Source: Candidatus Multivoradales bacterium (lineage in GTDB: Bacteria; Acidobacteriota; Thermoanaerobaculia; Multivoradales; J023). From it: 64,000 nt of DNA. Every line of letters begins with the position of its first letter. Positions within the stretch are counted from its first letter, which is position 1. Where the stretch lies: contig CBDFLE010000006.1 in assembly GCA_965248925.1 (NCBI GenBank), positions 963,700-1,027,699 on the forward strand, written 5' to 3'. This document shows positions 3,544 to 38,736 of the stretch, piece by piece. The position numbers were made by a program, and so were the translations under genes. The notes under the pieces are model-generated. The model was not told the DNA's origin and ran no database searches. It saw only the letters and a list, made by a program, of their open reading frames with translations.

Positions 3544-3593
3544 TGGTAATTCTGATTGACAGCTTCTATTGTTTTGTTTAAAGTTTTATACGA
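3544..3593. promoter_or_regulatory. AT-rich divergent promoter/operator region between the two XRE regulators.
   Basis: Locally low GC (caatggtaattctgattgacagcttctattgttttgtttaaagttttatacgaatg) between back-to-back HTH genes, resembling a lambda-like genetic switch. Confidence 0.5.
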
Positions 3594-3950: not shown

Positions 3951-3954
3951 CATC

Positions 3955-4683: not shown

Positions 4684-5021
4684 CCGCTCGGATCGATCAA
4701 GAATGGATTCTTCATCTGCTATTCCTCCTGATTGTTCCGGGTGGCCGCCATTGACCACTCATCGCCGTCTAACAGGCGAGTGTCTGATTTTGGATGCGTT
4801 TCGCGATGAGATCGCGAGGATATTCCCTAAATGACTGAAACTAGTGACCCCTTCTTCTGCGCTAAGCGAGTGCCCTACCCGCCTGGGCAAAATTCCGACA
4901 AGCCCCGGTCTCTTCGGTGGGGTCCATACATTGAGCCAGTGGGCCGCCGTCGAGTACTGCATCGGGGTCCTCGGGTCCAGCCTGTCGGTGTTGTCGGGGC
5001 GTAGGATCTGTTGGTAGTACA

Positions 5022-6197
5022 GTGAGGAAGCCTATCCTTGCCGAGCGGAATATCCGCCGACGCGGTAGCAGCTGGCAGCTCCGGATCTACTCGATGGGGC
5101 TTGGCCGTCAGGTCGTCGTCACCCACGGCAATCTGCCCCAGCTAGTAGCCAAGCGAGACGAGATCGAGGCCGACAACCTGTGCCGCAAAATCGGGGCATC
5201 TCCAGTACTGCGCTACCGGCCTGATCTTGGCAGCGTCCTGGAGCAGTTCCAACTCGAAATCGATCGCCGCGAGTGCTCTGGCGCGATCACTAGCGGCACT
5301 CTACGGACTTATGGCAACCACATCTCGGCATTCCAGCGATGGTCGGAAGAAACGGGGATGGATAGGTATGCCGCGGAAGACTTGCGGCGAACCCATGTGG
5401 AGCAATATTGCGCCTGGAGGGGGACCCACACGACGAGGGTTGGAACTAGCAAGGTGCGAGGCTCAAGCATGCGCACTGAACTCAGCACCCTCCGGCAGGC
5501 CCTCCGCCACGCCGAGATAACAGTCAACTGGCGCGCACCTCATTTCCTCAGCAAGGCGAGGGGTAAGAGGATCCTCTCGGCCGCAGAATTTTTCTCTTGG
5601 CTGGAGTGCATGCCCGTGGGCAGCCTGGAGCGCACCGCAGCAGAGCTAGCCTGGCGTACCGCGGCGCGTCCGAGCGACTGGATCAGGTTTCGGTGGAGCA
5701 ACGTCGACCGAGAAAGGGGGCTGCTGAAATTCGACGTCCAGAAACTCCGAGGCCAGCGCCATAGCGTCCCGCTGACTGACGAGATCCTCCATCATTTGAA
5801 CGCGTGGAGAACCAGCTCTGAGAGAGGCAACATCCTGCGAGGGCTGTGGTCACTGCATGCAGATCGACAGGCAATGCTTCGTGACACTATTTTCATCACA
5901 GGGACCACAGCGAGGCCCCGACGCCTGCGCACGAACTCACTCCGCAGGCGATGGGTCCAAGCTAGCAAGTCAGCGGGAATAGACCCGCCCATTAAAGCGG
6001 CCGGGGTTCTACGCAATCAGTTCATCGCCCTCGCCTTAGCGAGCGGCAGCAGCGCTTACGCTGTCGCTCGCCACGTTGGGCACAGCAGCCTCAATCTGTT
6101 GATCCGGTACGCAGAGCAGGATTTGCCAACCGAACTCATCCAAGAAATGACCGGAAAAATCGACGAGCGCCGACGCGTTATCGTCCAAGAGCGCTAG
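5022..6197 (+). CDS. Tyrosine site-specific recombinase (phage integrase family).
   Basis: C-terminal catalytic region with ...HSLRH.. and ARHVGHSSLNLLIRYAE, matching the R-H-R-Y integrase core. Confidence 0.8.
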   Translation: MRKPILAERNIRRRGSSWQLRIYSMGLGRQVVVTHGNLPQLVAKRDEIEADNLCRKIGASPVLRYRPDLGSVLEQFQLEIDRRECSGAITSGTLRTYGNHISAFQRWSEETGMDRYAAEDLRRTHVEQYCAWRGTHTTRVGTSKVRGSSMRTELSTLRQALRHAEITVNWRAPHFLSKARGKRILSAAEFFSWLECMPVGSLERTAAELAWRTAARPSDWIRFRWSNVDRERGLLKFDVQKLRGQRHSVPLTDEILHHLNAWRTSSERGNILRGLWSLHADRQAMLRDTIFITGTTARPRRLRTNSLRRRWVQASKSAGIDPPIKAAGVLRNQFIALALASGSSAYAVARHVGHSSLNLLIRYAEQDLPTELIQEMTGKIDERRRVIVQER

Positions 6198-6461
6198 AGA
6201 ATCTCGGCCAATCCTGTCCAACGAGGTGGCCGAATTTGGCCGAAATTTGGCAGGGCAGCATATATCCTGACTTTGTGAGAATCATCCAACTGCCTCAAAA
6301 CAATAAACTTACAGTGATTTTGTAGACAAGCAAATTCGCTGTGACTAAATAGCGTAGATTTCGTCCCATACCCACAGAGACGCGAAAGGTTCTTCGCTTC
6401 TTGCCTCTGACCTCGAGCGTGACTATCAACGGCTCTACACCCTGACGGCGGGAGCACGCTT

Positions 6462-7274
6462 TCAGTCCTGAGAAGCGATCTTGGCCAGTACATCAGGCCA
6501 AATCTCGCTCCAGCAACAACTGTGATCGAAGCCGGGATAGATCACCAGCTCGGCAGCTGAGAGCTCGGCCAGACGGCGGGACGCATCGGGCGGGATTCGC
6601 TCGTCGTCCTCACCCAACAGGTGCAACTGGCGGATGCTCGCCGGCAAGGGCGGACGGCGAGACGGGTCGAGGGAACCGAGCAGCGGGGTGTAGTGGTGCA
6701 GGTCGGCCCAGGCGACCAGGTCGAGATTGGCGGCGAGGGTGACCACGGCTCGCACCTTGGGCAACCGCTCGGCTAGCAACATGGCCAGCACACCACCGCC
6801 GCTGTAACCCACCAGCACGATCTGCTCGACCGGAGGCTCGGCTAGCAAACTGAGCAGGGCCTGTTCCATTGCTGCCACCACCCGCGGCGAGTAGCGCGCC
6901 AGGGTCCACAGTAAAGGGTCGCAATCGTCGGTCTGGCGCCAGCGGTTGTAGCACGGCCGGCCCAAGTAGAGACTGGGGGCGGGATCGAGTTGCATCAGCT
7001 CGAAGGCCAGGGCGCGGCGCGGGTGCGGATCGGCGGCGACCAGCTGTTCGCCAATCCAGGGTCGGCCATCGCCTTCGAGATAGACGTGTAGCCGTCGATC
7101 GGTGCTGCTCCCGCCTTTACGGTAGGCCACGTGGTGGAAGTCGCCGCCCACCAACACCAGGCGCTGATAGCCGGCGGCGGCGGCGCGAGCCTCGAGGTGG
7201 GCGGCAGGGGTAGGCGTCGTGACACAGCCAACGACGGCCAACGAACAAAGCAGGGTGGCGGCGCGCCGGTTCAT
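6462..7274 (-). CDS. Secreted alpha/beta-hydrolase lipoprotein.
   Basis: Signal peptide with lipobox (LAVVGC) and nucleophile elbow GYSGGG. Confidence 0.6.
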   Translation of the reverse strand: MNRRAATLLCSLAVVGCVTTPTPAAHLEARAAAAGYQRLVLVGGDFHHVAYRKGGSSTDRRLHVYLEGDGRPWIGEQLVAADPHPRRALAFELMQLDPAPSLYLGRPCYNRWRQTDDCDPLLWTLARYSPRVVAAMEQALLSLLAEPPVEQIVLVGYSGGGVLAMLLAERLPKVRAVVTLAANLDLVAWADLHHYTPLLGSLDPSRRPPLPASIRQLHLLGEDDERIPPDASRRLAELSAAELVIYPGFDHSCCWSEIWPDVLAKIASQD

Positions 7275-9253
7275 CGAGCACTCGGCACGAAAAACAGCTC
7301 GCCACCTTCGTCGTCAGTCAGCCTGATCGGAGCCAGGAGCGGTCGCTGGTCGAGTTCGAATCGGCGGGCAGCATCCACCACCGGCTGCTCGATCTGGCGA
7401 AATAGGGCCGACACCGGCAAGATCCGCTGATTGCCGCGAAGCGCGTCAAGCAAGGCGCGGGAGAAGACCGAGTTGCGCCCATCACCCCCAGCATCGAGCA
7501 CCGGACTGAGGCCACCCGAGGTGAGTGCCAGACGGGACCGGCGCTCGACCAACTGACGCACGCGGTCGGCATCGACCGGTGGATCGGCACTAGCGAGCGG
7601 CTCTGCCTCGTCACCCAAGGCACCGGAGTAGCATGAATCGGCCACCACCAGGACGTGGCGGGCAGCGATGTCGCCAATCAGAGTCGTGACATCGAATTTG
7701 ACGCTTACCCAATTCGACGTGTCCTCGGGCTCGGCGTCGATCGGCAGCCAGTAGCCCGACCCTTTCTGCAATAGCGAGCCGTGACCTGCGTAGAAGAGCA
7801 GCAGATTGTCGTTCGGCCCGACCTCGCCAATGATCTCGGTGAGGGCGGTGACGATCTCGTAACGTGTGGCGTTACGCAGGGTGCGCACATTGTAGCCGTA
7901 GCGGGTCTCCAGCACCTCGGCCAGCTCGCTGGCGTCGTTGACCGCGGTTTCCAGTCGCGGCAGCTTCTGGTATTCATCGTTGCCGATCAGCAGGGCGTAG
8001 GAAGCGCCGAAGTTGATCCCGGCATAGAGACTTGGGTCGTCCAGCTCATGTGCGCCTGCTGCTGATGACGCGGCTACCGCTGGGACGGTCTCTAGCGACC
8101 GACCGCCGCCACCGAGCCAGCCCATCTGCCAAGCAACCAGGGCCAACAGCAGCAAGACACCAAGTCCCACCAATGGCGCGGTGCGGCGAGGGCGGGACGG
8201 CATGCTAGCCGGCGGCTGAGCCTCGGCAGCCAGCAGCGCTCCACCACCCTCGGCGAGGGTCGGTGCCGAGGGGTTCCAGTCGCTGGGCGTGGTGCCGGCG
8301 GCGGTTGGCGCGGGCCGGGTCCGCAGGGGCCTAATGGGCTGCACCGCGGGCGGCAGCCCGGTGAAATCGTCGGCCCCGCTGTCTCCACTGCCTGAGAGGG
8401 AGCCGACCAAGGCTTCCGAAAATTCCCCGGCACTCGACCAGCGATCATCGGGACGCTTCTCAAGCGCCTTCATCACCACCCGCCGCAGCGATTCGGGAAC
8501 CGCCTCGCCGAGCGTGGTCTCGTCAAAAGCCTTGGGCGGATGGAACAGGTGCCCGGCGATGATCGACACCTCGTCATCACCCTGGATCGGATACTCGCGG
8601 GTGAGCAGCTCGTAGAGCACGATGCCGAAGGAGTAGAGGTCACTCCGCGCGTCAACCGTCACCTCCCCCTTGCTGCTTTCCAGATGTTCCGGCGAAACGT
8701 AGCGCGCTTTGCCCACCACCAAGCCGGTCTGGGTCTGAAACTGCGCTCCTTCGAGGGACTTGGCCAGACCGAGGTCGATCAGCTTGACCCGCGGGCTGCC
8801 ATCGGCGACCCAACTGAGCATCAGATTGTCGGAGGCGATATCGCGGTGGAGGATTTTCTGCTCGTGCAGGAAGGCCAGCGCGGCAAGCCCCTGGCGACCG
8901 ATCTCCACCACCTGCTCCAGCGCCAGCTGCTTGTCGGTGGCCAGCAGCTGGGCGACGTTCATGCCCTCGACCAGCTCCATCACCATGTAGGCGGTGCCGT
9001 CTTCGGCAACACTGAAGTCATAGAGCTGGGCGATCCCCGGATGGCGCAGCCGGGTCGCCACCTGCGCCTCGCGCAAGAAACGGGCCTGCAGATCAGGATC
9101 CTCGCGAAATTGGGCGCGGATCATCTTGATCACCCGCAGCTCGTCGAGGAAGACATGGCGCACCTTATAGACCGCGCCCATGCCGCCCTCGCCCATCTTG
9201 GCGACGACTTCGTACTTCTGCTCGATTTCCGGACTCAGGTGCAGCTCGCTCAT
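7271..9253 (-). CDS. Ser/Thr protein kinase (Hanks-type) - TM segment - C-terminal caspase (peptidase C14) fusion protein.
   Basis: Kinase motifs GEGGMGAVYKV, VIKMIR, HRDIASDN, DLGLAK, YVSPEH. Hydrophobic TM segment (LVGLGVLLLLALVAW). Caspase His/Cys dyad in LLLFYAGHGS and VVADSCYSG. Confidence 0.8.
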   Translation of the reverse strand: MSELHLSPEIEQKYEVVAKMGEGGMGAVYKVRHVFLDELRVIKMIRAQFREDPDLQARFLREAQVATRLRHPGIAQLYDFSVAEDGTAYMVMELVEGMNVAQLLATDKQLALEQVVEIGRQGLAALAFLHEQKILHRDIASDNLMLSWVADGSPRVKLIDLGLAKSLEGAQFQTQTGLVVGKARYVSPEHLESSKGEVTVDARSDLYSFGIVLYELLTREYPIQGDDEVSIIAGHLFHPPKAFDETTLGEAVPESLRRVVMKALEKRPDDRWSSAGEFSEALVGSLSGSGDSGADDFTGLPPAVQPIRPLRTRPAPTAAGTTPSDWNPSAPTLAEGGGALLAAEAQPPASMPSRPRRTAPLVGLGVLLLLALVAWQMGWLGGGGRSLETVPAVAASSAAGAHELDDPSLYAGINFGASYALLIGNDEYQKLPRLETAVNDASELAEVLETRYGYNVRTLRNATRYEIVTALTEIIGEVGPNDNLLLFYAGHGSLLQKGSGYWLPIDAEPEDTSNWVSVKFDVTTLIGDIAARHVLVVADSCYSGALGDEAEPLASADPPVDADRVRQLVERRSRLALTSGGLSPVLDAGGDGRNSVFSRALLDALRGNQRILPVSALFRQIEQPVVDAARRFELDQRPLLAPIRLTDDEGGELFFVPSAR

Positions 9254-9283
9254 GCTGGTGGCCTCTCGATCGGTGGTCGAACT
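9000..9283. repeat. Direct repeat copy 2 (5' end of the kinase gene plus ~30 nt of leader), ~88-90% identical to 10444..10727.
   Basis: Manual nucleotide comparison of the two regions. Confidence 0.75.
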
Positions 9284-9522
9284 TCCCTTGTGCTTGTCGC
9301 TGGCCTCATGAGCCCAGAGCGTATTGTGCCCCGGTAGACCAAGCGTTTCGAGTCTTCTTGGCAGGCCATCGGCAAGGAATCAGGAGACCTGGTCGCGGGG
9401 GCAATCCGCAGAATCGTCGAGAGAACCCCCCTTGACTCCGCGGAACCGACGACTAATACTCCTCATGGAGGCTCGGCTCAGGGGCTGCTCTCGGGTGGCT
9501 CTGAAGGCATTGCCTCCTTTTT

Positions 9523-10413
9523 TCATTCCCCACCTCGTCTGGCCTCGTACGGGTCCGGTACAAAAACGATGCCGTAGGACTCGAAAACGACCCCGTCCCG
9601 GGCTCCCTTCCCTCGGAATTGAAGCTGAGTGAGCCATTGACCATAGTCGTCGGCGATCTCCTTTCGAGTCGGCGCATCCATCCCTCGAGGCGGCAGCCGA
9701 AAACCCCAATTCACACAGTAGATCGCCAGGTCTGCGGCCTGGACCGGGTAGGTCATGTCAGAGGAGACGAAAAACGGCGCCGGGACGATCCACGCCGACC
9801 GATAGCGGCCCGTCTTCGTTCTCCGGAAGTATCCCTGGAGGCGGCGGACGAAGCGGCGGTCCTCAGCCTTTTCCACTTCGTCCATCACCAGCAGACCGTG
9901 CTGTTTTTCCTGCTCCAGGAGATAGAAGTAGCGCTCGAGAAGGAAGACCTGATCCTTGCGAAGGTACTCCTCCGCCTTGAATGTGTCTGGCTTGATGACG
10001 CTGCGCGGGATCGCGGCGGCAAATAATTGAGCTTTGTGTTGTCTGAGCAGCTCAAAGATCCCCGTCGCCATCTCCAGGGACGCCTGTCCGTAAGCCGTGA
10101 ACTCCACCCGCAGCGGCGGCTTCTTCTCCAGCCCCTTGGTGAGAAATCCCCGGCAATGCTTGCGGCGCTCCTCGTCAGGCATCCTCGACCCCTGGGCCGC
10201 CCACTTGTAGCGATCCTTGTCCAAGAGCTTGCAGCCCTTGAGTTCCGTCCGGAACTGATGCAGCGTGGTCCCGAAGGAGTCCAGCTCCAGACGCTGCATG
10301 TCCTGTACAAATGACCACAGCTCCGAAGCATGCAACGCCACACCGCCCCTAACCTCGTAGGGCATGGTCCGGTGGTCGTGACCGCTCTCATCCAGGAAAA
10401 GCAAATAGCTCAT
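9523..10413 (-). CDS. DUF3800 domain protein.
   Basis: N-terminal MSYLLFLDESGHD and C-proximal QAADL motifs typical of DUF3800. Its start overlaps the stop of the upstream kinase-fragment ORF (ATGA). Confidence 0.65.
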   Translation of the reverse strand: MSYLLFLDESGHDHRTMPYEVRGGVALHASELWSFVQDMQRLELDSFGTTLHQFRTELKGCKLLDKDRYKWAAQGSRMPDEERRKHCRGFLTKGLEKKPPLRVEFTAYGQASLEMATGIFELLRQHKAQLFAAAIPRSVIKPDTFKAEEYLRKDQVFLLERYFYLLEQEKQHGLLVMDEVEKAEDRRFVRRLQGYFRRTKTGRYRSAWIVPAPFFVSSDMTYPVQAADLAIYCVNWGFRLPPRGMDAPTRKEIADDYGQWLTQLQFRGKGARDGVVFESYGIVFVPDPYEARRGGE

Positions 10414-10697
10414 CCGGCGATCTCCAAGGGCTCCTCGATCTCATCCTCGGCGACGCTGAAATCATAGAGCTGGGCGATCCCCGGATAGCGTAGCCGGGTC
10501 GCCACCTGCGCCTTGCGCAAGAAACGGGCCTGCAGATCAGGATCCTCGCGAAACTGGGAGCGGATCATCTTGAGCACCCGCAGTTCATCGAGAAAGACAT
10601 GGCGAACCTTATACACCGCCCCCATACCGCCCTCGCCCATCTTGGCGACGACCTCGTACTTGTGCTCGATTTCCGGGCTCAGGTGAAGCTCAGTCAA
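10410..10697 (-). pseudogene. Truncated duplicate of the Ser/Thr kinase N-terminus (95-aa ORF: Gly-loop + VAIK Lys + aC only). Acts as a leader ORF for DUF3800.
   Basis: Protein MTELHLSPEIEHKYEVVAKMGEGGMGAVYKVRHVFLDELRVLKMIR... is ~90% identical to aa 1-85 of the full kinase. TTG start. It ends 9 aa after the homology stops. Confidence 0.6.
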
Positions 10698-10727
10698 GGT
10701 GCCAAGCCCCTCGATCGGCGGTCGATA
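10444..10727. repeat. Direct repeat copy 1 (diverged duplicate of the kinase 5' end plus leader).
   Basis: Manual alignment to 9000..9283. Confidence 0.75.
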
Positions 10728-11169
10728 CCGCCACCCGTTTCGCTCTCAGCGGTTGCACCTAATTCGGGATTCACTTGCATCCGCTTGCCGAAAGAGGATC
10801 AAGCCTCTGCAACATCAGGACGTTGTTGTGGGGAGGACGCTGCAATCGGCCGCGACTCTCAGCCAACTCTTGCTGGTCGCCATTCGGCACTGATCTCACA
10901 GACTCCATCTTCGCCGGGCGCCGCATGGAGATCCGCCGAGTCACGACGGAACATCTCTGCAGATCACTGACGGTCTGGCGGGATGGGACTCGGTCTGGCG
11001 CACAGCATAGATCTTCTCACGACCGAAGATCGCCTGCACGAGGAACCGATAGAGCGACAGTGATCGCCTCAAGACGGTGGCCGAGAGCGGCGCAGAGCAC
11101 CCGCACAAGGCAACAAAAAGCCGGCTGCACACCTGGTTGCAACCGGCTTTCGAGGCTCCAGCGAACTTC

Positions 11170-20732: not shown

Positions 20733-22682
20733 TCAGCGCTGCAAGTAGGTGTAGCCCTCCAGGCCTTGGCAGTAGAGGTCGATCAGCTGCCGGGCCTGCG
20801 AACGATTCATGCGGCCGGCCTCGAGGGCACCCTCGATATTGCGACGCAGCTGGCGTAGCAGCTGGCGATCATCATACTCGACATAGGCCAACACCTCGCT
20901 GATGGTATCTCCCGGTACGACGTGCTCAATCCGGTATCCACCGTCCTGGTCGAGCGAGGCGTGCACGGCATGGGTGTCGCCGAATAGATTGTGCAGATCG
21001 CCGAGGATCTCCTGATAGGCACCCACCAGGAAAGCTCCCAGGTAGTAGGGCTGCTGGTCGAGGGAGTGCAGCTCGAGTTCAGGCTGGCCACCCGGCGGGC
21101 CAATGAAGCAGTCGACAACCCCGTCCGAATCGCAAGTTATGTCGGCCAGCACACCACGACGGCTGGGGAACTCATCCAGGCGATGGATCGGCATCAGCGG
21201 GAAAAGCTGGTCGATGGCCCAAGTATCGGGTAACGACTGGAACAAGGAGAAGTTGGTGAAGTAGATGTCCGCAAGCCGCCGGCCGAGAACCTCAAGCTCA
21301 CCGGCAGGTGCGGCGCAGGCGGCACGCTGCAACTGCCAAACCCGACGACAGAGGGCCTCGAAGATGTCTTCAGCCAGCACTCGCTCCTCAAGCGACAAGT
21401 GGCCAAGATTAAACAGGCTGAGGCATTCGTCGCGATACTGCAAGGCGTCGTGATACGCCTGGCGGCAGGTCGTCGCGTTGAGCCCATGAAAGGCCTGCAG
21501 CAGATGCACCAAGGGCGGCTCGGCGTCGGCGGGAGGTGCCGACGGGATCTCAACCCGCCGCGGCTGGCGCACGTCGAGGACTTCGAGCACTAACACCGCA
21601 TGGTGCGCCACCGTCGCTCGGCCAGCTTCGCTCACCACCACCGGATGGGGCACTCCCTCGGCATCACAGATCTCTTGAATACCGAAAATCACGCCGTTGG
21701 CGTACTCCTGCAGGGAGTAGTCGATCGACGAGCCCGCGCTCGACCGCGAGCCGTCGTAGTCGACCCCGAGACCACCGCCTACATCGAAGTAGCCCAAGGG
21801 CGCGCCGAGGCGGATCAACTGCACGTAGACCCGCGCCGCCTCACGCCAGGCTTCCTTGAGATTGCGAATCGAAGAGACTTGGCTACCGAGGTGAAAGTGC
21901 AACAGTTCGAGCCGGTCGAGCAAACCCCGACGGCGCAGCAGCGCCACCGCCTCGACCATCTCGCGAGCGCCGAGGCCAAATTTGGAGCGCGCACCCGCAG
22001 AAGCCTGCCAATGGCCCGAACCGCGGGTCGCCAGCCGGGCGCGCAGGCCAAGCCGCGGCGCAACCCCAGTTCGCTGAGCCACCTGCAATATCAGCGGCAG
22101 CTCTGCCGGCTTCTCCAGCACCAGGATGACCCGCGGCCCAAGTCGCGACGCCAGCAGAGCCGCCTCGATGTACTGCTCATCCTTGTAGCCGTTGCAGATC
22201 ACCAAAGCCTCAGGATTGTCGAGCAGCGACATCACCGCCAGCAGCTCAGGCTTGCTGCCGGCTTCCAGGCCATAGTGAAACGGCCGGCCGGCCGCCACCA
22301 GCTCTTCGACCAGAAAGCGGTTCTGATTCACCTTGATCGGGTAGACCGGGCGATAGGCAGCCTGGTAGCCATGGGCTGCGATGGCGTTGGCGAAGGCACT
22401 TTGAATCTCCGCCAACCGTGCCTTGAGGACATCGGAGAAGCGAATCAGCAGCGGCGGATCGATGCCCCGTTCGACGATCTCATCCACCAACCGTTTGAGA
22501 TCCAGCCCGCCACTACCGACCACCTCCGGCGCCACCTCGATGTGGCCGCGGGGGTTGATCGAGAAAAATCCTCGGCCCCAACTGTCGACCCGGTAGAGCT
22601 CGCGAGAATCTTTGATCGTCCAGCAGGCCTCGGCGGGGCGCGAAGACGGTCTTGCGGCATTGGCTCGGAGTCGGCTGGACAT
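20733..22682 (-). CDS. speA: Biosynthetic arginine decarboxylase.
   Basis: YPIKVNQ, HFHLGSQ, DVGGGLGVDYDGS and WTIKDSRELYRVDSWGRGFFSIN N-terminal signature. Start is ATG at 22682 or 22688. Confidence 0.9.
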   Translation of the reverse strand: MSSRLRANAARPSSRPAEACWTIKDSRELYRVDSWGRGFFSINPRGHIEVAPEVVGSGGLDLKRLVDEIVERGIDPPLLIRFSDVLKARLAEIQSAFANAIAAHGYQAAYRPVYPIKVNQNRFLVEELVAAGRPFHYGLEAGSKPELLAVMSLLDNPEALVICNGYKDEQYIEAALLASRLGPRVILVLEKPAELPLILQVAQRTGVAPRLGLRARLATRGSGHWQASAGARSKFGLGAREMVEAVALLRRRGLLDRLELLHFHLGSQVSSIRNLKEAWREAARVYVQLIRLGAPLGYFDVGGGLGVDYDGSRSSAGSSIDYSLQEYANGVIFGIQEICDAEGVPHPVVVSEAGRATVAHHAVLVLEVLDVRQPRRVEIPSAPPADAEPPLVHLLQAFHGLNATTCRQAYHDALQYRDECLSLFNLGHLSLEERVLAEDIFEALCRRVWQLQRAACAAPAGELEVLGRRLADIYFTNFSLFQSLPDTWAIDQLFPLMPIHRLDEFPSRRGVLADITCDSDGVVDCFIGPPGGQPELELHSLDQQPYYLGAFLVGAYQEILGDLHNLFGDTHAVHASLDQDGGYRIEHVVPGDTISEVLAYVEYDDRQLLRQLRRNIEGALEAGRMNRSQARQLIDLYCQGLEGYTYLQR

Positions 22683-22847
22683 CGGCATGGCCCTCGCGGT
22701 CTGGCGCCCTCGGAATCTGACCCACCGATCCGACCCTCCAGCAGAAGGAACCATCCCAGGAAAGGAGTGGGTTCTAGCACGCGGATGAACGGCCTCGGCG
22801 ACAAGATCCGGCAGTGATCGAAGTCTGGTCTGAGGCCCACGGCCCAC

Positions 22848-23151
22848 GACAATCTACAACTCTAGCAAGGCTGTCGACCAGCTTCTAGAAGGAAACACCG
22901 AGAACCACCGGGTGATCACCTGGAGCCTATCGGTTAGCAATCTAAGTATGCTAAAATTATAGGTTAGCTATTCAAGCTATTCAGATGTCAAGAGGAGTGC
23001 GAGGTCTTGGTGGAGGTCTCTCCCTAAGGGTTCTTGAGTGTCTGCAATCTAGTAATTTCTCTTTATCGACTAGGAAAAAAGCGTTTCTATTCGGTTCGTA
23101 GGTCTGTTTCTTTTACGGACCGCTGCCCGTGGAGCGGTTCAGTTATCCGCT
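22848..23151. promoter_or_regulatory. AT-rich intergenic/regulatory region between divergent speA and the TIR gene, with imperfect direct repeats ggttagcaatctaag / ggttagctattcaag.
   Basis: Marked local GC drop. Repeated ggttagc motifs read directly. Confidence 0.45.
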
Positions 23152-24645
23152 GTGATGCCGATCGAGACTGATATTTTCATCAGTTACGCCCACCTCGACA
23201 ACGAGGTCGTCGGAGCTGAGACCGAAGGGTGGATCTCATGCTTCCACCGCTCTCTGGAAGTCCGCTTGGCCCAGCTGCTGGGTCACAAGCCACGGATCTG
23301 GCGCGATCCCAAGCTGCAGGGAAACGACTACTTCGGCGACGAGGTCAGCGAGCAGCTGCCCCGCGTGGCCACCCTGATCCCGGTCTTGACGCCACGCTAT
23401 ATCCGCTCCGAATAGTGCCAGCGAGAGCTGGAGACTTTCCTGGCCGAAAGCCGCTACGCCGGCCGCGAGCGGATCGGCAACCAGGCCACGGTTTTCAAGA
23501 TCGTCAAGACACCGATCCCGATCACCGAGCAACCCACGCCGATCCAGGACCTGCTGGGCTACGACTTCTTCAAGCTCGACCCCAAAACTCTGCGAGTTCG
23601 CGAGCTCAGCCAATCACAGGAATCTGAATACCAGCGCGAATACTGGGCTCGCTTCGAAGATCTGGCACAGGACATCGGCAAGCTGCTCGAGCAGCTTGCC
23701 GACGACGACCCACCCTCTACCCCGGCAGCCGGCCAGAGAAACCGGGGCAAGGTCTATCTGGCCGACACCACCTTCGACCTGCGCGAGTCCCGCGACGCCC
23801 TGAAGCGCGACCTGCAGCAGCACTGCTACACCGTGCTGCCCGACCGCACTTTGCCACCGATCGCTCCGGAGCTCGAAGCTACGGTTGCTGCGGGGCTGGC
23901 CGAGACGGCCCTCTCGATCCACCCGATCGGCGCCAATTACGGCTTCGTTCCTGAAGGCGCCACTTGCTCGGTGCTGGAGATCCAGAATGAGCTGGCCATC
24001 GCTCGCCATATCGAGGGCGGCATGCAGCGGTTGATCTGGATCCCCTCCGATCTGGTGATCGAGGATCCGCGTCAGCTCGCTTTCGTCGACCTACTGCGCC
24101 AGGACACGCGTGCTCAAACCGGCGCTGATCTGATGGAGACCACGCTCGAAGACTTCAAGCTGGTCATGCATCAGAAGCTCGCCCCACCACCTGAAGACGA
24201 AGCTACCGATGGCGATAGTGATGGCGATGGCGACCCGCTGCAACGCGTCTACCTGATCTGCGATCGGCGCGATTTCGAAGCCGTCGCGACCCTTGAAGAC
24301 CGTCTCGTTGACCTTGGCTTCGAGGTCATCCTGCCGGCCTTCGACGGCGACGAGGCGCAGGTCCGCGAAGACCACCTGGAGAATCTCAAAATCTGTCAGG
24401 CGGTGCTGATCTTCTGGGGTCAGGCCAACGAGTTCTGGCTCCGCGCCAAGCTGCGCGACCTGCTCAAGATCGGTGGCTACGGTCGCCGCCAGCCCCTGGC
24501 TGCCAAAGCGATCTGGGTAGGCTCGCCAGCCAGCCCACGCAAGCAGCGTCTACGCACCCATGAGGCCGCAGTGATCCATGCCGAGGCCGGCTTCGACGAC
24601 GCCCTCCTCGGCCCATTCCTGGAACATCTGGCAACCCCCGAGTGA
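23152..24645 (+). pseudogene. TIR-domain protein (N-terminal TIR plus two further TIR/SLOG-like modules), interrupted by an in-frame TAG at 23413-23415.
   Basis: DIFISYAHLDNE TIR start. Frame 1 is continuous from 23152 to 24645 except for one amber codon. Read-through gives ...PRYIRSE[*]CQRELETFL, so the stop sits at the conserved Trp of the TIR SxWCxxEL motif (TGG to TAG). Confidence 0.7.
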
Positions 24646-25440
24646 TGAGCTGCGTTCAGCCAATCAACCTCGACAACCCGTTTCCGGGCCTGCGCGCCTT
24701 CGAACCAGAAGAGGAGCATCTGTTCTTTGGCCGCGAAGAGCAGGTCGACGAGCTGATGCGGCGACTGCGTCGCACCCGTTTCCTGACCGTCGTCGGCAGC
24801 TCGGGCAGCGGCAAATCGTCGCTGGTGCGCTCGGGATTGATCCCGGCGCTGCACAGCGGCTACATGGTGGAGGCCGGCTCGAGCTGGCGCATCACCGTCT
24901 TCAGGCCCGGCGACGATCCGATCGGCAACCTTGCCGAAGCGTTGGTCGATCCGGAGGTGATCGGTGATCCCGAGCAGCCGCCGGCGATGCTGCGCGGCAT
25001 CCTCGAAGCAACCTTACGACGCGGCAACCGCGGCCTGCTCGAGGCGGTTCGCCAGGCCAAGATGGGGAAGCACGACAACCTGATGTTGGTGGTCGATCAG
25101 TTCGAGGAGATCTTCCGCTTCAAGCGTAGCGCCAACAAATCGGCGGTGGGCGATGCCGCCGCCTTTCTCAAGCTGCTGCTTGAAGCCGCCAAGCCAGACG
25201 ATCTGCGAGTCTACATAGTGCTCACCATGCGCTCCGATTTCCTCGGTAGCTGTGTCGAATTCCACCGTTTGCCAGAAGCGATCAACCAAGGCCAGTACCT
25301 CGTACCGCGGATGACCCGTGACGAACGTCGGGCGGCGATCGAAAGCCCAGTGGCGGTAGCCGGTGGCGAGATCTCTCCCCGCCTGTCGCTGCGACTGCTC
25401 AATGATGTCGGTGACAATCCCGATCAGCTGCCGATCCTGC
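24645..25440 (+). pseudogene. STAND/NACHT-like P-loop NTPase, 3'-truncated (N-terminal ~265 aa only).
   Basis: NPFPGLRAFEPEEEHLFFGREEQVDELMRRL, Walker A VVGSSGSGKSSL, Walker B LMLVVDQFEE. Homology stops abruptly after DQLPIL, where the LPLLQHAL-type motif is expected. Translationally coupled to the TIR gene (TGATG). Confidence 0.65.
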
Positions 25441-26888
25441 CAGGGCAACGATCGCACCCTCTTTCTGATCGATGGAGTGGAGGAGAACGATCTGTGGTCG
25501 AACATCGCCTATCTTTCGCGCCAATACCCGCTGTCCGACATCGACCGCATCGAGGTGGTCTACGGCCCGGCATCGACCATGTATGGCCCCAATGCTTTCG
25601 TCGGGGTGATCTCGATCTTGACCAAGAACGCCCGCCAACTAGTCGCCGCGGGCGAACGCATGGCGCTCCGCGCCGAGGCCGGCGGTGGTAGCTGGTCGAC
25701 TTCCTGGGTCGACGCCACGGTGGCGGCGCGCAGTGACTCTGGCAGCGTCGACTTCACCCTCACCGGCCGCTTCTACAGCTCGGAGGAGTTTGACCGCTCG
25801 AGCTTTGCCGACTGGGACTACGACCCGTCCTTCTACGCTCCGGAGAACGACGCGGTGCGCGGTGGCAGCAATTACCGCGGCCTCAACACCGAGCAGACCG
25901 AGCGCGCCCGCGACGATCTCAAGCTGGTGCTCGGCGGACGCCTCGACAACAACGACGCCGGGGCCCGGGTCGGGGTGCTCGACGCCGCGGGAAATCCGCT
26001 GGTGGTGACCGGCGCTATGGCAGTGAGTTCAATCCCCGCCTGGCGGTGGTCTACAGCCCCGGTGATCTGGTCCTCAAAGCGATTTACGCAGAGGCCTTCA
26101 AGGACGCCTCGAATTTCAACCGGTACGCCACCGCCGCCGGCATTCGGGACCTGCAGAACCCGTTTCTCAAGCCTGAGAAAATGGAGAATTTTGAGCTCGC
26201 CCTGGGCTGGGAGGGGGCGGCCCGGTGGAGCACTCAAACCAGCATCTACCAGGCAACCTACAGTGGCGCGGTCGGCCAAGTGCGGGTGCCGTTTCAGGGC
26301 GGCAGCACCGTCCAAAACCAGAATGTCGGCGCTCTCAAGATCCACGGACTGACGACCTCCGCGCGGTACCGGCGCGAGGGCTTCGGACTGTTCGCCAACT
26401 ACAGCTGGACCGAGCCGAAGAACCTCCAGCCCAGGGACAGCGCGGGCGACCGCTACCTCGACCCCGACGGCCGGCCAATCGCTGAGGTGCGGCTTGGCGA
26501 CATCGCCGAGCACCGTCTCAACCTGGGCCTCGACCTGGCATGGCGGGTGCACTTCGAGTTCGACCTGCGGCTGTCATGGGTCGGTGACCGCGACACCTTC
26601 GATGTTTGCAGCAACTGCCTGCCAGGTGGAGGCACCAGAGACGGCGAGCCTCCAGCGATGGCGACTGTCGGCAATCCGCTGCGCGAGATCGACGCCTATC
26701 TCGATGTCAACGCCACTCTGACCTGGAAAGATCCACTGCCCGCCAGCCGCCTGCAGCTGGTGCTGCGGAATCTGCTCGACAGCGAGTACGAGCACCCCGG
26801 AGTCCGCAGCGCCGATGGCAGGGTGTTCGCCACCAGCCAGCCGCAGAACGAGCGCAGCATCTTCCTCCGCTGGGCGGTGGGATTCTGA
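25440..26888 (+). pseudogene. TonB-dependent receptor remnant: 5'-truncated (starts mid plug domain) with an internal frameshift near 26000-26045.
   Basis: DRTLFLIDGVEENDLW...IDRIEVVYGPASTMYGPNAFVGVISILTK plug motifs with no signal peptide or TonB box. Frame switch before EFNPRLAVVYSP. C-terminal LRWAVGF. Confidence 0.65.
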
Positions 26889-26912
26889 GCCGGTGGAACC
26901 ACGAAGAAATCC

Positions 26913-27594
26913 GTTGGGCAGCCGGCCAGCGACTCGCGTCGACTTCATCAAGACTTCGCCGAGCGGCAACATCACGGCGCTGGTGCTACCGCTGGTGAAG
27001 CGCTCGCGGCAGGTCGAGATCGCCCATCGCCTGCTGCGCTACGACCCGCAGCTCGAGCAGGTCGGATTCGTCGAGCCCGCAGCGGGCAAAGCTATGGCCC
27101 GACTACAGATGATGGGCGGCGAACTGTGCGGCAACGGCGCCTGTGCGCTGGCCTGGCATCTGCGATCCCAGGTCGAACCAGTGGCCGAAGGTAGGCGCCG
27201 CCTGCGGCGGGCGATCATCAGCCCCCACAACCTGCCGTCTCTAGCCACTTTTCTCAACCACTGCGGCCATCTGGTAGAGCACTCCTACCCTCAGCTGCGG
27301 GGCTACGGCGAGCCCCGGTTGGCGGTGTGTGCGCAGCTCAGCGGCGCTGCCGATCTACACTACCGCATCGATCCAGCCTGCCTCGATCAACAGCTGGGGA
27401 GCGGCCAGGAAGGCGAAGACCATCTGCTGATCGATGGCACCAACCCGGCCGCTCTGCAGACCGCCCAGGCGCGGGGCTTCTACCCGGTGGCCCTACTGCC
27501 CTACACCGAAGACAGCGCCACTACGCACCTGCTGGGGTTACCCGCCAAGCGTCTCGCACTGCGCTATTCTGGGCCGCCCGCAAGGGTCGACTGA
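26913..27594 (+). CDS. DapF/PhzF-like epimerase-fold protein (hypothetical).
   Basis: VDFIKTSPSGNITALV and MMGGELCGNGACALAWHL resemble DapF FxKMHGxGNDF and CGNG active-site motifs. Putative TTG start. Confidence 0.35.
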
Positions 27595-29257
27595 TGCGCT
27601 TCAGCTTCCGGCGCCAGCTTCTCGAATTATTCGAGATTCGCTCTGGCGAAGGCCTTGCGATCGGTCTGCTACTGCTCTACTCGTCGTTGTCGGGCATTGT
27701 CGTAGGGTTCTATTTCACGGTCGCCAACGCCGCTTTCCTGAGCCAGTTCGACCTCTCCCAACTGCGCCAGATCCTACCCTTCGCCTATATGGCTTCGGGG
27801 GTCGTGGCAGCGCTGGCGGCGGCTCTTTTCGCTACCGCCGAGCATCGTCTCTCGCTACCCACGCTGCTGCTTGGCAATACGGCCTGCTTATTTTTCGTCG
27901 TGGGGGGCTTCGCGGTGGGATTCGGGCGCTCCAGCGGCGACCTGCTCAGCATCGCCAGCATTGTCTTCGTCGTCCCCATCCTGACCTTGCTCGATCTCGG
28001 CTTCTGGGGGTTTGGCCGGAGGTCTGCTCGACCTCGAACAGAGCAAGCGCCTACTCGGCGTCGTCAGCTCGGGCGAGGTGCTGTTAGCAGCGCTGAGCTT
28101 CCTCGCCGTGCCGTTGCTCTTCGACGCTGGCTTCGGCGCCGTGCTGCTGCTGACTCTTGCCACCGCCGCCTTACTCGCGACCCTACTCCTACTGCCGGTG
28201 ATCTTCGCCTGCCACCGGCAACGCCTCGAGGACAGCGGCGAGACTCTCGCCGAGCGATCCGCCGATGAGCCGGACGCGGCAGTCCAGAACAGCGCGGCGC
28301 GACGCTACCTAGCCCTGATGACCGCGGTCACCTTGCTGTTCATCCTGACGCAGTATTTTGTCGACTACAGCTTCCTAACCGAGATCCGCCAAACGATTCC
28401 GCAGCGGGGGGAGCTGACCCGCTTTCTAGGTTGGTTCTTCTTCGCCACTAAGACTCTTGAGTTGATCGTCAAGACCGTCGGGCTCGGCCGCCTGCTGCGC
28501 CATTTGGGCCTGTTCGGCGCCGGTGGCCTGCTGGCGCTGCTGGCCCGCAGCCCGATCCTCGGCGGCCTGGGGCCACGGCTGATGATCATGGCTTCGCTGC
28601 TCTGTGCCTGGTTGGCGGCCAGCTTGGCACTCTTTAGCGAGTATCGCGAACACCTCCTGGAGGCCCTCGACCGGCAAACTAGCCAGCTGCTCAACTCTCC
28701 GCTGGAGACCATCCGCAATCAGCTGGCGGGCGCCGAGCGCGATGAGCTGAGACTAGTGCTCAACGTGCTGCAGCGAGTCGAGCCGGAGTTCTTCAACCGT
28801 TCGCTGGCCGAGCTGCTGAGATCGCCGAAGCTGGCCAGCCGGAGCGAAGCGGTGGAGAGGGTGATCGAGCTGCGGCTGCTCCGAGCAGGGATAGAGCGGT
28901 TCGAGGCGGCTGAGAGCGATCTTCAGCTGCGCCAGCGGGCCGCGGAAGCCCTGCGCATCCTTAGACCAGGCCGAGCACTCTTCTAACACCCTCGAGAAAG
29001 TCACGGCACTGGCCGCCGGGGCGCTGCTCGAAACGGTAGGCAGTGCTCCCCAGGAGCTGTTCCTCAAGCTGCTCGCGGATGCCGACGTCCTGGGGGAGAT
29101 CGCGGTATTCGAATCCGGCAAACGGGTTGCCAACGCCACCTCTATCGGCCCAAGCCGTCTGCTGCGGGTCGACCGCCAGCAGCTCACCGACCTGCTGGCA
29201 GACCACTTCGAGATGCTACCGACATTTATCCAGGTCATCACCCAACGCCGGGCCTGA
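27594..29257 (+). pseudogene. Npt/TLC-like MFS transporter - HEAT repeat - partial cNMP-binding domain gene, disrupted by two frameshifts (~28010 and ~28985).
   Basis: Three consecutive frames carry protein-like sequence: MRFSFRRQLLELFEIRSGEG...(TMs); ...LFSEYREHLLEALD...HEAT...; ...DVLGEIAVFESGKRVANATSIGPSRLLRV... First shift is at a G5 run (ttctgggggttt). Confidence 0.5.
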
Positions 29258-29367: not shown

Positions 29368-29745
29368 CTATCCGCCGACCTCTTCGGTCGTGGCGTCATC
29401 AGCGCTGGCGGCAAAGCTGGCCACCGCCTCGGCTTCGTCGTCGTAGGATTCCAACAGCGGTAGGACCTGGCTGATCTCGAGCACGTCGCGAATCCGCCCA
29501 GCGGTCGACAGCAGCTTGAGCCGCGAGCCAAAACGGCCCGCCAGGCGATAGCCGGCCACCAACTCGCCAACCCCGGCACTATCGATACGGCTGAGTCCGG
29601 ACATGTTGAGCAGGATCTGCTTCCACTCGGCGGCAACCAGTTCGTTGATCACCTCGCGCAGCATCTCCTCAGGGCCACCGGCGATCAGACGGCCTTCGAG
29701 ATCGACGATCAGAGTTTTGCCGGACTGACGAAGTTCTACGTGCAT
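29368..29745 (-). CDS. STAS-domain anti-sigma-factor antagonist (SpoIIAA-like).
   Basis: LIVDLEGRLIAG...LNMSGLSRIDSAGVGELVAGYRLAGRFGSRLKL. Confidence 0.7.
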   Translation of the reverse strand: MHVELRQSGKTLIVDLEGRLIAGGPEEMLREVINELVAAEWKQILLNMSGLSRIDSAGVGELVAGYRLAGRFGSRLKLLSTAGRIRDVLEISQVLPLLESYDDEAEAVASFAASADDATTEEVGG

Positions 29746-29871
29746 AAGCTAAGCTCTCCTGGGTTCGCGGAGGCCGCAGGATAGCACGGCCAGAGGGCGG
29801 TGAAGCGATCGTCAGGGCACCGTCACAACAACCTCGGCGGCAGAGGGAATGTTGAGCAAGGGAGAGGGTCG

Positions 29872-30170
29872 ATGGCCGAGCGAGCAAGCGAGCAAGACAC
29901 CGCCGTAGGCGATTTCATGAGGCGGAATTTCCGCCACTTCAACGCCCGCTCTGTGGTCGAAGCGGCCGCCGCTTGGGTTGCTCAGCTAGACCAGGGCAAC
30001 CACATGTTCCTTACCTTGGCGGGGGCCATGAGCACTGCTGAAATCGGCCTACAACTGACCGAGATGATCCGCCGCGGCAAAGTCCACGGCATCTGCTGCA
30101 CCGGCGCCTACCCCGAGGAAGAGCTGTTCAACCTAGTCCCCCACGACCACCATGTGGGCTTCCGGATTGA
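29872..30170 (+). pseudogene. Deoxyhypusine synthase-like gene, 5' fragment only (~100 aa), paralogous to 37756..38736.
   Basis: MAERASEQDTAVGDFMRRNFRHFNARSVVEAAAAWVAQLDQGNHMFLTLAGAMSTAEIGLQLTEMIRRGKVHGICCTGAYPEEELFNLVPHDHH, then homology is lost although the ORF continues as low-complexity junk. Confidence 0.6.
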
Positions 30171-30217
30171 TCGAGAAAAACCCTCGGCCCCAGCGGTCGA
30201 CCGAGTAGGGATCGAGC
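30163..30217. repeat. ~55-nt segment ~85% identical to speA 5' coding region (22556..22610), at the breakpoint of the DHS-like fragment.
   Basis: attgatcgagaaaaaccctcggccccagcggtcgaccgagtagggatcgagcgag vs gttgatcgagaaaaatcctcggccccaactgtcgacccggtagagctcgcgag. Minus-strand translation gives ...DRWGRGFFSINP. Confidence 0.55.
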
Positions 30218-30376
30218 GAGCTGGCGGTCGCTGCTTGTGGCGGCTCGAGGGCGGATTGATCGACCGTCTACCTGGCTGCGTAGCATTAGGATACGATCCC
30301 CCCCACCAAACGCCTTATGAACACCAGAATCTTGGACTTCTTGCCGATGAACATTGCTGCAGATTGGCCGCGGCGC

Positions 30377-37387: not shown

Positions 37388-37582
37388 TCAATCGACCCTG
37401 AAGCTCTGCAGCTCCACCGGGATCGAGCAACCGGTGGCGGTGGCTTCAGAAATCTGCCGCCAGGCGGCGGCGATCAGCTCGTTGATCACTCCGCGAAACA
37501 TCTCCTCAAGGCCGCCGGCGACCCGACGGCCTTCGAGGTCGACGATCAAGGTGCTGCTGGACTGACCAAGCTCTACCTGCAT
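37388..37582 (-). pseudogene. Chimeric 64-aa ORF: N-terminal 45 aa of a STAS antagonist paralog fused to the C-terminal tail ...ATGCSIPVELQSFRVD of a secreted-protein paralog.
   Basis: MQVELGQSSSTLIVDLEGRRVAGGLEEMFRGVINELIAAAWRQ is ~85% nt-identical to 29620..29745. The last 65 nt are ~85% identical to 35922..35987. Confidence 0.5.
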
Positions 37583-37643
37583 GGGCTATGCTCCCCGGGC
37601 GCCGCAGGGTGTCTTGCAAACCGTGCCAAGGTCTGCGGAAACC

Positions 37644-37695
37644 GCAAGATCGCACTGCAAGATCGCACTGCAAGATCGCACTGCAAGATCGCACT
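37644..37695. repeat. Perfect 13-bp tandem repeat x4 (gcaagatcgcact) in the intergenic/promoter region upstream of the DHS-like gene.
   Basis: Read directly: accgcaagatcgcactgcaagatcgcactgcaagatcgcactgcaagatcgcactgcgg. Confidence 0.85.
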
Positions 37696-37755
37696 GCGGA
37701 AGCGCCGCGACAGCCGCCGGCGGCAGATGGAAAGCCGACGTGAGGAGTCCGCCCC

Positions 37756-38736
37756 TTGAGCGACGAAAATATCTCAGTGCGCGACTTCATGCGGCGCAAC
37801 TTTCGCCACTTCAACGCCCGCTCGGTGGTCGAGGCGGCCGACGCCTGGGTCGCTCAGCTGCGCCAGGGCAACCACATGTTTCTCACCCTGGCTGGGGCGA
37901 TGAGCACCGCCGAGATCGGCCTCCAGCTGGCCGAGATGATCCGCCGTGGCAAAGTCCACGGCATCTGCTGCACCGGCGCCAATCTCGAGGAAGACCTGTT
38001 CAACCTGGTCGCCCACGACCACTACCAGCGGATCGCCGATTGGCGTTCGCTGACCGCCGGGAATGAGGCCGAACTCGCCGAGCACGGCCTCAACCGGGTG
38101 ACCGACACCTGTATCCCTGAAGTCCAGGCGATGCGCAAGATCGAGCAGCTGATCGCCCTGCGGTGGCACGATGCCGAGGCCGCTGGCCAGCGCCACCTGC
38201 CGCACCAGTTCGTCTATCAGCTGCTACTCAGCGGCGACCTCGAGGAGGCTTACCAGATCGATCCCAACGACTGCTGGCTATTGGCGGCGGCGCAGCGGGA
38301 CCTGCCCCTCTTCGTCCCCGGCTGGGAGGATTCGACCCTCGGCAACATGTTCGTCGCCCGCCATCTGAGCGGCGAGATCGCCAATCTCGACACCGTCAAA
38401 GGGGGCTTGCACTACATGCAGGAATTGGTCGATTGGTACCGCCGCGAGACGGCGGAGCGATGTCTCGGGTTTTTCCAAATCGGTGGCGGAATCGCCGGCG
38501 ATTTCCCAATCTGCGTGGTGCCGCTGATCCAACAGGATCTGGACCAGGAGATTGGCTTGTGGTCCTACTTCTGCCAGGTCAGCGACAGCACCACCTCCTA
38601 CGGCTCCTACAGTGGCGCGGTGCCGAACGAGAAGATCAGCTGGGGCAAACTGGCGCCGGAGACGCCGAAGTTCATCATCGAGAGCGACGCTTCGATCGTC
38701 GCGCCGCTGGTCTTCGCCTGGGTCCTGGCAAGCTAG
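37756..38736 (+). CDS. Deoxyhypusine synthase-like (DHS/homospermidine-synthase family) protein.
   Basis: FMRRNFRHFNARSV...TLAGAMSTAEIG...KVHGICCTGANLEEDLFNL. TTG start with GAGGAG RBS. Confidence 0.75.
   Translation: MSDENISVRDFMRRNFRHFNARSVVEAADAWVAQLRQGNHMFLTLAGAMSTAEIGLQLAEMIRRGKVHGICCTGANLEEDLFNLVAHDHYQRIADWRSLTAGNEAELAEHGLNRVTDTCIPEVQAMRKIEQLIALRWHDAEAAGQRHLPHQFVYQLLLSGDLEEAYQIDPNDCWLLAAAQRDLPLFVPGWEDSTLGNMFVARHLSGEIANLDTVKGGLHYMQELVDWYRRETAERCLGFFQIGGGIAGDFPICVVPLIQQDLDQEIGLWSYFCQVSDSTTSYGSYSGAVPNEKISWGKLAPETPKFIIESDASIVAPLVFAWVLAS

Follow-up and report, generated by a model that had tools for sequence, protein, structure and literature searches.

The region from position 23155 to 29257 of a 64,000-nucleotide (nt) stretch of the genome of a Candidatus Multivoradales bacterium (contig CBDFLE010000006.1; the whole stretch is called the window below) is very probably the non-functional remnant of a single operon that has undergone ordinary deletional decay. 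In its ancestral order, the operon would have encoded a TIR/DUF4062-like protein, an nSTAND1-WD40 NTPase, a TonB-dependent receptor (TBDR), a CntK-like racemase, a GNAT-like protein and a transporter that combines NTT(TLC), HEAT and cyclic-nucleotide-binding (cNMP) domains. An earlier note, made from the sequence alone, had recognized serial decay at this site, and all the lesions that it listed are present in the sequence. Its domain calls (TIR, STAND NTPase, TBDR and Npt/TLC-HEAT-cNMP) were also right, and the single-gene transporter it named is the ancestral architecture. What has to be revised is the nature of the thing that decayed, because the note described a mixed defence/transport island whereas the genes form one conserved operon whose order is shared by six independent loci. 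The source contig, at 5,218,600 bp, represents an essentially closed genome rather than a fragmentary bin; the window has an overall G+C content (GC) of ~0.64, and the arginine decarboxylase gene speA on the left of the region indicates a Thermoanaerobaculia-like Acidobacteriota placement.

Lesions were mapped base by base against the unbroken reading frames of a close relative, represented by two non-overlapping short contigs (L162 and L161) from Joint Genome Institute (JGI) metagenome 3300022697, where the contigs are Ga0248672_106620 and Ga0248672_104651. This relative was reached through protein searches with the reconstructed transporter and TIR proteins and not through speA, for which scans of genome and metagenome collections gave a closest match of at most 64% amino acid (aa) identity. 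The reconstructed transporter led to P0001 (780 aa, 78% aa identity) and the TIR protein to the intact P0005 (490 aa, 84-85% aa identity). Nucleotide identity between relative and window is 80-87% (about 84%), and in blastn comparisons both contigs map on the window without rearrangement, with order and orientation kept (Table 1). L162 carries speA (- strand), the TIR gene and an nSTAND1 NTPase gene coding for at least 840 aa, and L161 carries genes for the TBDR, the CntK-like racemase (287 aa), a 298-aa protein, an NTT-HEAT protein (780 aa), a HEAT-cNMP protein (264 aa) and a STAS protein (- strand). Between speA and STAS the relative's genes are free of lesions save for one possible stop in the transporter gene, an in-frame TAA at L161 6509-6511 (MRDHL*ADTAEARAYAMEIA) that homologues read through (MRHSLADPAGQGHAYVFEIA). 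This codon may mark a natural NTT-HEAT/cNBD fission, as in PMC5381601 (cNBD, cyclic-nucleotide-binding domain), or an early lesion. Synteny with a relative thus upholds one half of the original proposal and not the other: the same genes stand in the same order and are essentially intact there, which supports decay and speaks against a recent island.

Relative to these frames, the window has suffered one nonsense codon, five large deletions, one 36-nt deletion and three small frameshifting insertions. Some 6.1 kb of ~12.3 kb have been lost and only 4 nt inserted, giving a ratio of deleted to inserted bases above 1000:1, and the repeats at the junctions measure 1-13 nt. Mira, Ochman and Moran are said to have described a deletional bias in bacterial pseudogenes in 2001. 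The locus resembles deletional pseudogene decay in general: far more bases are deleted than inserted, the junctions show microhomology and the genes of the dead operon have decayed as a group. Nothing about it is unusual in this respect.

The TIR gene carries a single lesion, the nonsense codon at Trp87. This TAG splits the match to TIR_2 (PF13676), which runs across the stop with 44 bits once the tryptophan is restored, and the invariant glutamate of the WCxxEL motif, Glu91, follows it by four codons. W87, C88 and E91 are invariant in 81 homologues (alignment A3), and the sole exception at W87 in a 39-sequence alignment (A2) is the window's own stop codon. E91, the catalytic glutamate of NAD-cleaving TIR domains, is still encoded in the window but lies 3' of the stop and so would go untranslated. 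The family has more than 1000 homologues with ~50% identity over 99% of the length, many of which receive a DUF4062 call. An AlphaFold2 (AF2) model of the orthologue P0005, not of the window copy, has a mean confidence score (pLDDT) of 86, contains three alpha/beta domains and shows the flavodoxin-like TIR fold; Foldseek matched this model to the TIR domains of RPP1, SPARTA and SARM1 (E 2e-6 to 1e-3). Compared with the relative, the window protein makes only ~2 extra departures at 151 conserved columns, and, to judge from its sequence, it appears to carry no excess of damaging changes apart from the stop. Decoding of the TAG by pyrrolysine insertion or read-through was considered and rejected, since TAG is a frequent stop here (it terminates 16 of the 42 long open reading frames [ORFs] in the window) and the codon replaces an invariant tryptophan. 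The TIR protein found no match when searched against plasmids.

Downstream of the TIR gene, damage is much heavier. The NTPase fragment keeps its Walker A motif (GSSGSGKS) but has lost the remainder of its NTPase module as well as the WD40 part; an orthologue covers positions 1-373 of the nSTAND1 profile, and orthologues measure from at least 840 to ~1050 aa, with WD40 repeats in L162, L163, L168, L169 and L170. At junction J1 the fragment runs out of frame into the TBDR remnant, whose entire 5' end, where the signal peptide and TonB box would be, is missing. Homology to the relative's receptor begins at its residue 101, and in tblastn the L161 protein aligns over residues 101-258, 465-509 and 510-801, the last of these in another frame. 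What is left does not amount to a complete Plug and 22-strand barrel. Truncation and frameshift of the TBDR had been seen before, but an additional 651-nt in-frame internal deletion had been missed. Similarly, both frameshifts reported in the transporter gene stand, and deletions of 243, 36 and ~1200 nt must be added to them, the last two of which took away the HEAT region together with half of the cNMP-binding domain, on its N-terminal side (the relative's domain covers profile positions 2-89). The reconstructed window transporter has no match to TLC (PF03219) and that of the relative has a weak match to TIGR00769 (E 0.0015). Homologues at L168 and L170 score 29.3 and 23.6 bits with Pfam TLC (cut-off 21); both have HEAT repeats (PF13646), and the one at L170 also has cNMP_binding (PF00027).

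The one ORF in the region that looks undamaged had been taken for an intact DapF-like gene at 26913..27594. Its real extent is 26893-27594, and it is a chimera created by a deletion that fused two genes. Its histidine-racemase match is limited to the N-terminal third, with one of the two catalytic half-sites. Compared with CntK/HisR of staphylopine loci (NF033599, NF052224), the ~80 N-terminal residues match, including the GNxT and CGNG motifs, and the gene lies beside a TBDR gene as well. However, the score is 40 bits for the window and 63 for the relative against cut-offs of 300 and 400 for the two families, the window match spans profile positions 2-84 of 271, and the C-terminal two thirds of the window gene are absent. 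Among the genes called at the relative's locus, none has a Pfam or NCBIfam domain that would point to CntL or CntM. The L163 homologue of the second, GNAT-like gene matches Acetyltransf_1.

That these genes belonged together is indicated by five distant loci (L163/L164, L165, L168, L169 and L170), which were found by tracing TIR homologues (50-53% identity) to their contigs. Each has genes for the TIR protein (494-511 aa), the nSTAND1-WD40 NTPase (~1020-1050 aa) and the TBDR (874-922 aa) in the same order, with start and stop codons that overlap (4 nt) or leave tiny gaps, and with unrelated flanks. A gene for an NTT-HEAT(-cNMP) protein of 1060-1071 aa then follows in four of the five, and the L163 cassette also has a GNAT-like gene (42% identity). 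Pairwise identities of the TIR, NTPase and TBDR proteins co-vary across the six lineages (r = 0.79-0.90). At L165 the nSTAND1 gene (8514-10818) matches in two frames in an otherwise intact cassette, through either a frameshift or an assembly error. The place of the transporter after the TBDR is taken at L169 (17321-21536) by a non-ribosomal peptide synthetase (NRPS) with C-A-T modules. At L171 (1-11992) NRPS and polyketide synthase (PKS) genes precede a transporter homologue of 35% identity that has neither HEAT nor cNMP domains. P0003, a more distant homologue of the transporter, lies after NRPS-PKS genes.

Inactivation seems to have been recent relative to the split from the relative, a date that is read from substitution patterns. 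The ratio of non-synonymous to synonymous divergence (dN/dS) between window and relative is 0.07 and 0.18 for the TIR gene, 0.16 for the NTPase and 0.10 and 0.14 for the TBDR. It is 0.28 for the racemase, 0.21 for the GNAT-like gene, 0.20-0.24 for the transporter and 0.43 for its short cNMP piece. The intact flanking genes speA (87% aa identity to its L162 counterpart) and STAS (91% to that of L161, which keeps its position and orientation) served as controls and gave 0.14 and 0.10. Such low values at a synonymous divergence (dS) of ~0.5 mean that nearly all of the divergence accumulated under purifying selection and that decay is therefore recent. At least ten lesions in 6 kb, despite the recent look of dN/dS, are no more than a neutral divergence of a few per cent could account for. 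The distal half has both the denser lesions and the higher dN/dS, which suggests that the genes from racemase to transporter may have been lost first and that the TIR stop may have come last. We suspect that decay started with a lesion in the transporter half or else with the ~3-kb deletion that took the sensor half of the NTPase together with the 5' end of the receptor gene. Once one such hit had disabled the unit, selection on all members would have lapsed and the bacterial deletion bias would have eroded the rest. No part of the region would then be expected to function now, the chimeric ORF included.

A different history was favoured by the earlier note, in which a foreign defence/transport island arrived recently and is being purged, the TIR stop having been selected because the effector is toxic. 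Some observations do point towards acquisition: in distant Acidobacteriota (L001, L009, L011, L012, L015 and L017) speA and the deoxyhypusine-synthase-like gene DHS are directly adjacent and divergent, without the cassette, and elsewhere the cassette lies in unrelated contexts, once beside BREX and SLATT genes. We nevertheless regard a recent island as improbable. The same genes and the same AT-rich intergenic region occupy the same site in the relative at dS ~0.5, so that any acquisition predates the split. The composition of the region is also typical of the contig (tetranucleotide distance over 22-30 kb, z = -0.8 to +0.35; GC 0.62-0.65), and the compositional check that had been proposed for it thus reveals no atypicality. 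No hallmarks of mobility are seen at its borders: there is no tRNA gene in the window, no long flanking repeats bracket the region, and the sole integrase found in the window, a phage-type gene at 5022-6197, lies 17 kb away. As for toxicity, a TIR protein that has lost its NTPase partner could in principle escape regulation. In STAND systems, though, the effector requires the NTPase for its activation, and an orphan TIR protein is more likely to be inert than toxic; moreover, the TIR gene bears signatures of purifying selection up to the stop. An older acquisition of the operon is plausible, and the cassette was found beside speA in none of 160 more distant speA loci. In composition, the window is atypical solely at ~2500-6500 (GC 0.52-0.60, tetranucleotide z up to 3.4); this stretch holds the integrase and is a better mobile-element candidate than the pseudogene region.

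The AT-rich stretch between speA and the TIR gene had been interpreted as the island's boundary. Its low GC relative to the ~0.64 of the surroundings is real, but the corresponding intergenic region of the relative (L162 1807-2058) has a GC of 0.45 and shares conserved blocks with the window. From this alignment, the ~300 nt are a conserved divergent intergenic region and not an island edge. Scans of 22848-23151 gave no sigma-70 consensus site, terminator, Rfam match or tRNA. A palindrome or hairpin lies at ~23117-23145, just 5' of the TIR start, and reads CCGCTGCCCGTGGAGCGG in the window and CTGCTCCTGGAGCAG in the relative (L162 ~2015-2040), with both arms changed; this conserved hairpin could be an operator or a 5'-untranslated-region structure.

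We consider it still less probable that the lesions are artefacts, with a chimeric or collapsed assembly producing the deletions and sequencing errors the stop and frameshifts. The three small insertions do fall in short repeats or homopolymers, and L165, which comes from another long-contig assembly, likewise has a split NTPase gene. On the other hand, all five large deletions lie inside co-linear homology to one operon with order and orientation kept, and junction repeats of 1-13 nt are not long enough for a k-mer or long-read graph to collapse on them, even the 11-13 nt microhomologies of J2 and J4 being far below an assembler k-mer. A base error falling exactly on an invariant tryptophan is unlikely, though possible. 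Furthermore, on a contig of 5.2 Mb, flanking genes across ~55 kb have Pfam matches over most or all of the profile length (speA, IclR, CoA-transferase, two ASPIC/FG-GAP genes, a TPR gene, DHS(2), DcuC and a C25 peptidase). Because these genes are near full-length, the clustering of lesions reflects neither chance nor generally poor sequence quality. The earlier statement that the flanks are intact therefore holds for speA and the other Pfam-checked genes; it fails for the adjoining 'DHS' gene, which is truncated. No paralogues of the region's genes were found elsewhere in the window, and the fragments are accordingly not copies of resident intact genes.

Finally, we give very little credence to the idea that parts of the region are still functional in remodelled form, through read-through of the TAG, a useful racemase/GNAT chimera or a truncated NTPase acting alone: the chimeric ORF is indeed in frame over 233 codons and the TIR and NTPase fragments still look constrained, but TAG is a common stop in the window, the chimera contains the first third of a racemase fold and an in-frame fusion has a one-in-three chance of arising, the low dN/dS is explained by recency, and the NTPase fragment is without 140 profile positions and all sensor repeats.

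Several points weigh against the decay of one recently active operon as we have presented it. The lesions are read from the assembly, which leaves each of the small ones provisional, above all the G added to a G run at 28006. For J1, the size is estimated from the intact cassettes of distant homologues, and the 3' end of the NTPase gene and the 5' end of the TBDR gene in the relative's lineage fall outside L162 and L161. The TAA in the relative's transporter gene could mean that decay began before the split, and the distal genes could have a higher dN/dS because they are intrinsically less constrained, not because they were inactivated earlier. In addition, the operon is not universal, since a TIR homologue (L166/L167) is found in another context without a TBDR, and what the intact unit would do is predicted from its domains.

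With a decayed operon as the preferred explanation, the practical consequence is that seven ORF fragments and the neighbouring 'DHS' should be annotated as pseudogenes, the apparently intact ORF included. The locus offers a clean, datable case of microhomology-mediated deletional decay of a whole operon. As a phenomenon, this decay is ordinary; the interest lies in the conserved operon that the remnant exposed. PADLOC-DB 2.0 gave no system match for the orthologous TIR, NTPase, TBDR, racemase, GNAT-like and transporter proteins, with only the cNMP domain resembling that of Pycsar effectors, and literature searches returned no paper describing the operon or linking TIR/STAND genes to a TBDR or NTT. 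The operon itself thus appears to be undescribed.

The intact unit would most likely be an NLR-like conflict or signalling system in which a STAND/WD40 sensor activates a TIR-type NAD-cleaving effector. Its nearest likeness is to the NLR-like/STAND systems with TIR or DUF4062 (NIR) NADase effectors (nSTAND1, Avs, Swarozyc/NIR), with which it shares a WCxxE TIR-fold protein, a DUF4062-like second domain in many members and an adjacent nSTAND1-WD40 NTPase. The nSTAND1 family was defined among conflict-system NTPases by Kaur et al. 2021 (PMC8195603), and recent work showed that DUF4062 acts in bacterial immunity as a TIR-like NADase (bioRxiv 10.64898/2026.05.01.722283, 10.64898/2026.09.04.749371). 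The operon differs from those systems in that effector and NTPase are encoded by separate genes, the effector has three tandem TIR-like domains, and the pair is conserved in an operon with a TBDR and usually an NTT-HEAT-cNMP transporter. The latter has the same TLC/NTT, HEAT and cyclic-nucleotide-binding architecture as the NTT-HEAT-cNBD transporters of Major, Embley and Williams 2017 (PMC5381601), in which HEAT and cNBD parts are fused or split by lineage, as they are here (780 + 264 aa in L161, 1062-1071 aa in L168 and L170). That study reported no TIR, STAND or TBDR link and left the function of the family uncharacterised; the window copy differs in its two frameshifts and three deletions.

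How the two halves of the operon might work together is more speculative. The NRPS genes at L169 and L171 hint at a small molecule as the business of the distal half, and the racemase, GNAT and NRPS genes seen with that half leave room for a role in uptake, perhaps metallophore-like. We conjecture that the sensor/effector pair may be functionally tied to the outer-membrane receptor and the nucleotide-regulated inner-membrane transporter. We offer tentatively, as a minority expectation, that the intact operon is an undescribed functional system that couples an NLR-like module for immunity or signalling mechanistically to transport through both membranes, the window holding a freshly dead copy. 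In one possible form of coupling, the transporter's cNMP domain would move or sense nucleotides that the TIR protein makes or consumes. Alternatively, the receptor/transporter pair may be a guarded entry route or an effector. If such a unit is real, it would link NLR-like TIR signalling to envelope transport and provide a functional context for the uncharacterised NTT-HEAT-cNBD transporters, with intact copies available at L168 and L170.

Table 1. Features of the speA-STAS region and its surroundings, and segments of the relative aligned to the window
Feature	Window position	Strand	Evidence or detail
TIR/DUF4062-like pseudogene, ~495 aa, three domains	23155..24645	+	sole lesion is a TAG
Nonsense codon TGG to TAG at Trp87	23413..23415	+	window RSE*CQREL, relative RSEWCQREL
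nSTAND1-WD40 NTPase, 5' fragment, ~266 codons	24645..25440	+	nSTAND1 (PF20703) profile 1-239 of 379
Junction J1, ~3-kb deletion, out-of-frame join of NTPase codon ~266 and TBDR codon ~200	25436..25445	+	L162 homology ends and L161 homology starts at 25440
TBDR remnant without 5' end, internally deleted, frameshifted	25438..26888	+	Plug 55-107 of 107; barrel 230-436 of 436, in a different frame
Junction J2, 651-nt in-frame deletion in TBDR	25902..25912	+	between two copies of GCGCGCCCGCG
+2 (GC) insertion, TBDR frameshift	26012..26013	+	GC to GCGC
Chimeric ORF, 233 codons: CntK-like racemase codons 1-104 and GNAT-like gene codons 168-298, in frame	26893..27594	+	tblastn
Junction J3, 1055-nt deletion	27198..27204	+	imperfect CGCCNCCTG microhomology
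NTT(TLC)-HEAT-cNMP transporter remnant, ancestrally ~1050-1070 codons	27594..29257	+	pieces in three frames; cNMP_binding 33-89 of 89
+1 G frameshift, transporter gene	28006	+	G4 to G5 run; sequencing error possible
Junction J4, 243-nt in-frame deletion	28491..28516	+	between 13-nt GGCCTGYTCGCTG repeats
+1 T frameshift, transporter gene	28961	+	T to TT
Junction J5, 36-nt deletion (~29017), then ~1.2-kb deletion (~29080)	29017..29085	+	base-level comparison with L161
speA/TIR divergent intergenic region, AT-rich	22848..23151		GC 0.45-0.49
speA (arginine decarboxylase), intact left flank	20733..22847	-	Orn_Arg_deC_N, helical-bundle and C-terminal domains all full
STAS anti-sigma-factor antagonist, intact	29368..29745	-	STAS profile 2-106 of 106
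Truncated deoxyhypusine-synthase-like DHS', N-terminal ~115 codons	29884..30150	+	DS profile 10-102 of 288
speA 5' remnant (SLDPYSVDRWGRGFFSINPEAHMVVVG), abuts DHS' tail to tail	30137..30219	-	repeat D15, 75% identity to 22525-22607
Second STAS gene remnant, N-terminal ~45 codons, upstream of intact DHS	37452..37599	-	repeat D10, 80% identity
L162 1-1831	20952-22783		blastn
L162 1915-4338	23023-25440		blastn
L161 305-777	25440-25912		blastn
L161 1418-2724	25902-27204		blastn
L161 3773-5108	27198-28516		blastn
L161 5326-5857	28491-29017		blastn
L161 7150-7336	29071-29257		blastn
L161 7366-7654	29364-29652		blastn

Breakage continues beyond the right-hand border of the operon. The truncated gene next to STAS, DHS', has 85% nucleotide identity to the intact DHS gene of the window (37756-38736, +), with 16 non-synonymous changes, and its dN/dS of 0.12 at dS 0.67 implies that it was a working gene until recently, either a paralogue or a xenologue. 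A plain tandem duplication was rejected as its origin, since neutral decay would have given several times more than 16 non-synonymous changes. Together with the speA 5' remnant and the remnant of a second STAS gene (Table 1), DHS' makes the speA-DHS interval (22.8-37.8 kb) a zone of accretion and breakage, and one-sided homologous integration of a relative's DNA is a possible mechanism. A 13-nt tandem repeat (GCAAGATCGCACT, ~4 copies) is located at ~37640-37700 upstream of the intact DHS gene, whereas the duplicated copy at 29760-29800 lacks it. In databases, the protein nearest to the window's DHS (P0126, 83% identity) bears the label of a pipefish, Nerophis lumbriciformis; this label probably reflects bacterial contamination of the pipefish assembly and is a hint that the lineage may live in a host-associated or marine setting.

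On the left, the true start of speA is likely to be at ~22685. Farther away, 10413-10745 (-), taken with 7271-9253 (-) and 9523-10413 (-), repeats at 90% identity the opening ~86 codons of a Ser/Thr-kinase-caspase gene (Pkinase and Peptidase_C14) and lies immediately upstream of a DUF3800 gene. It represents another orphan 5' gene fragment in the window.

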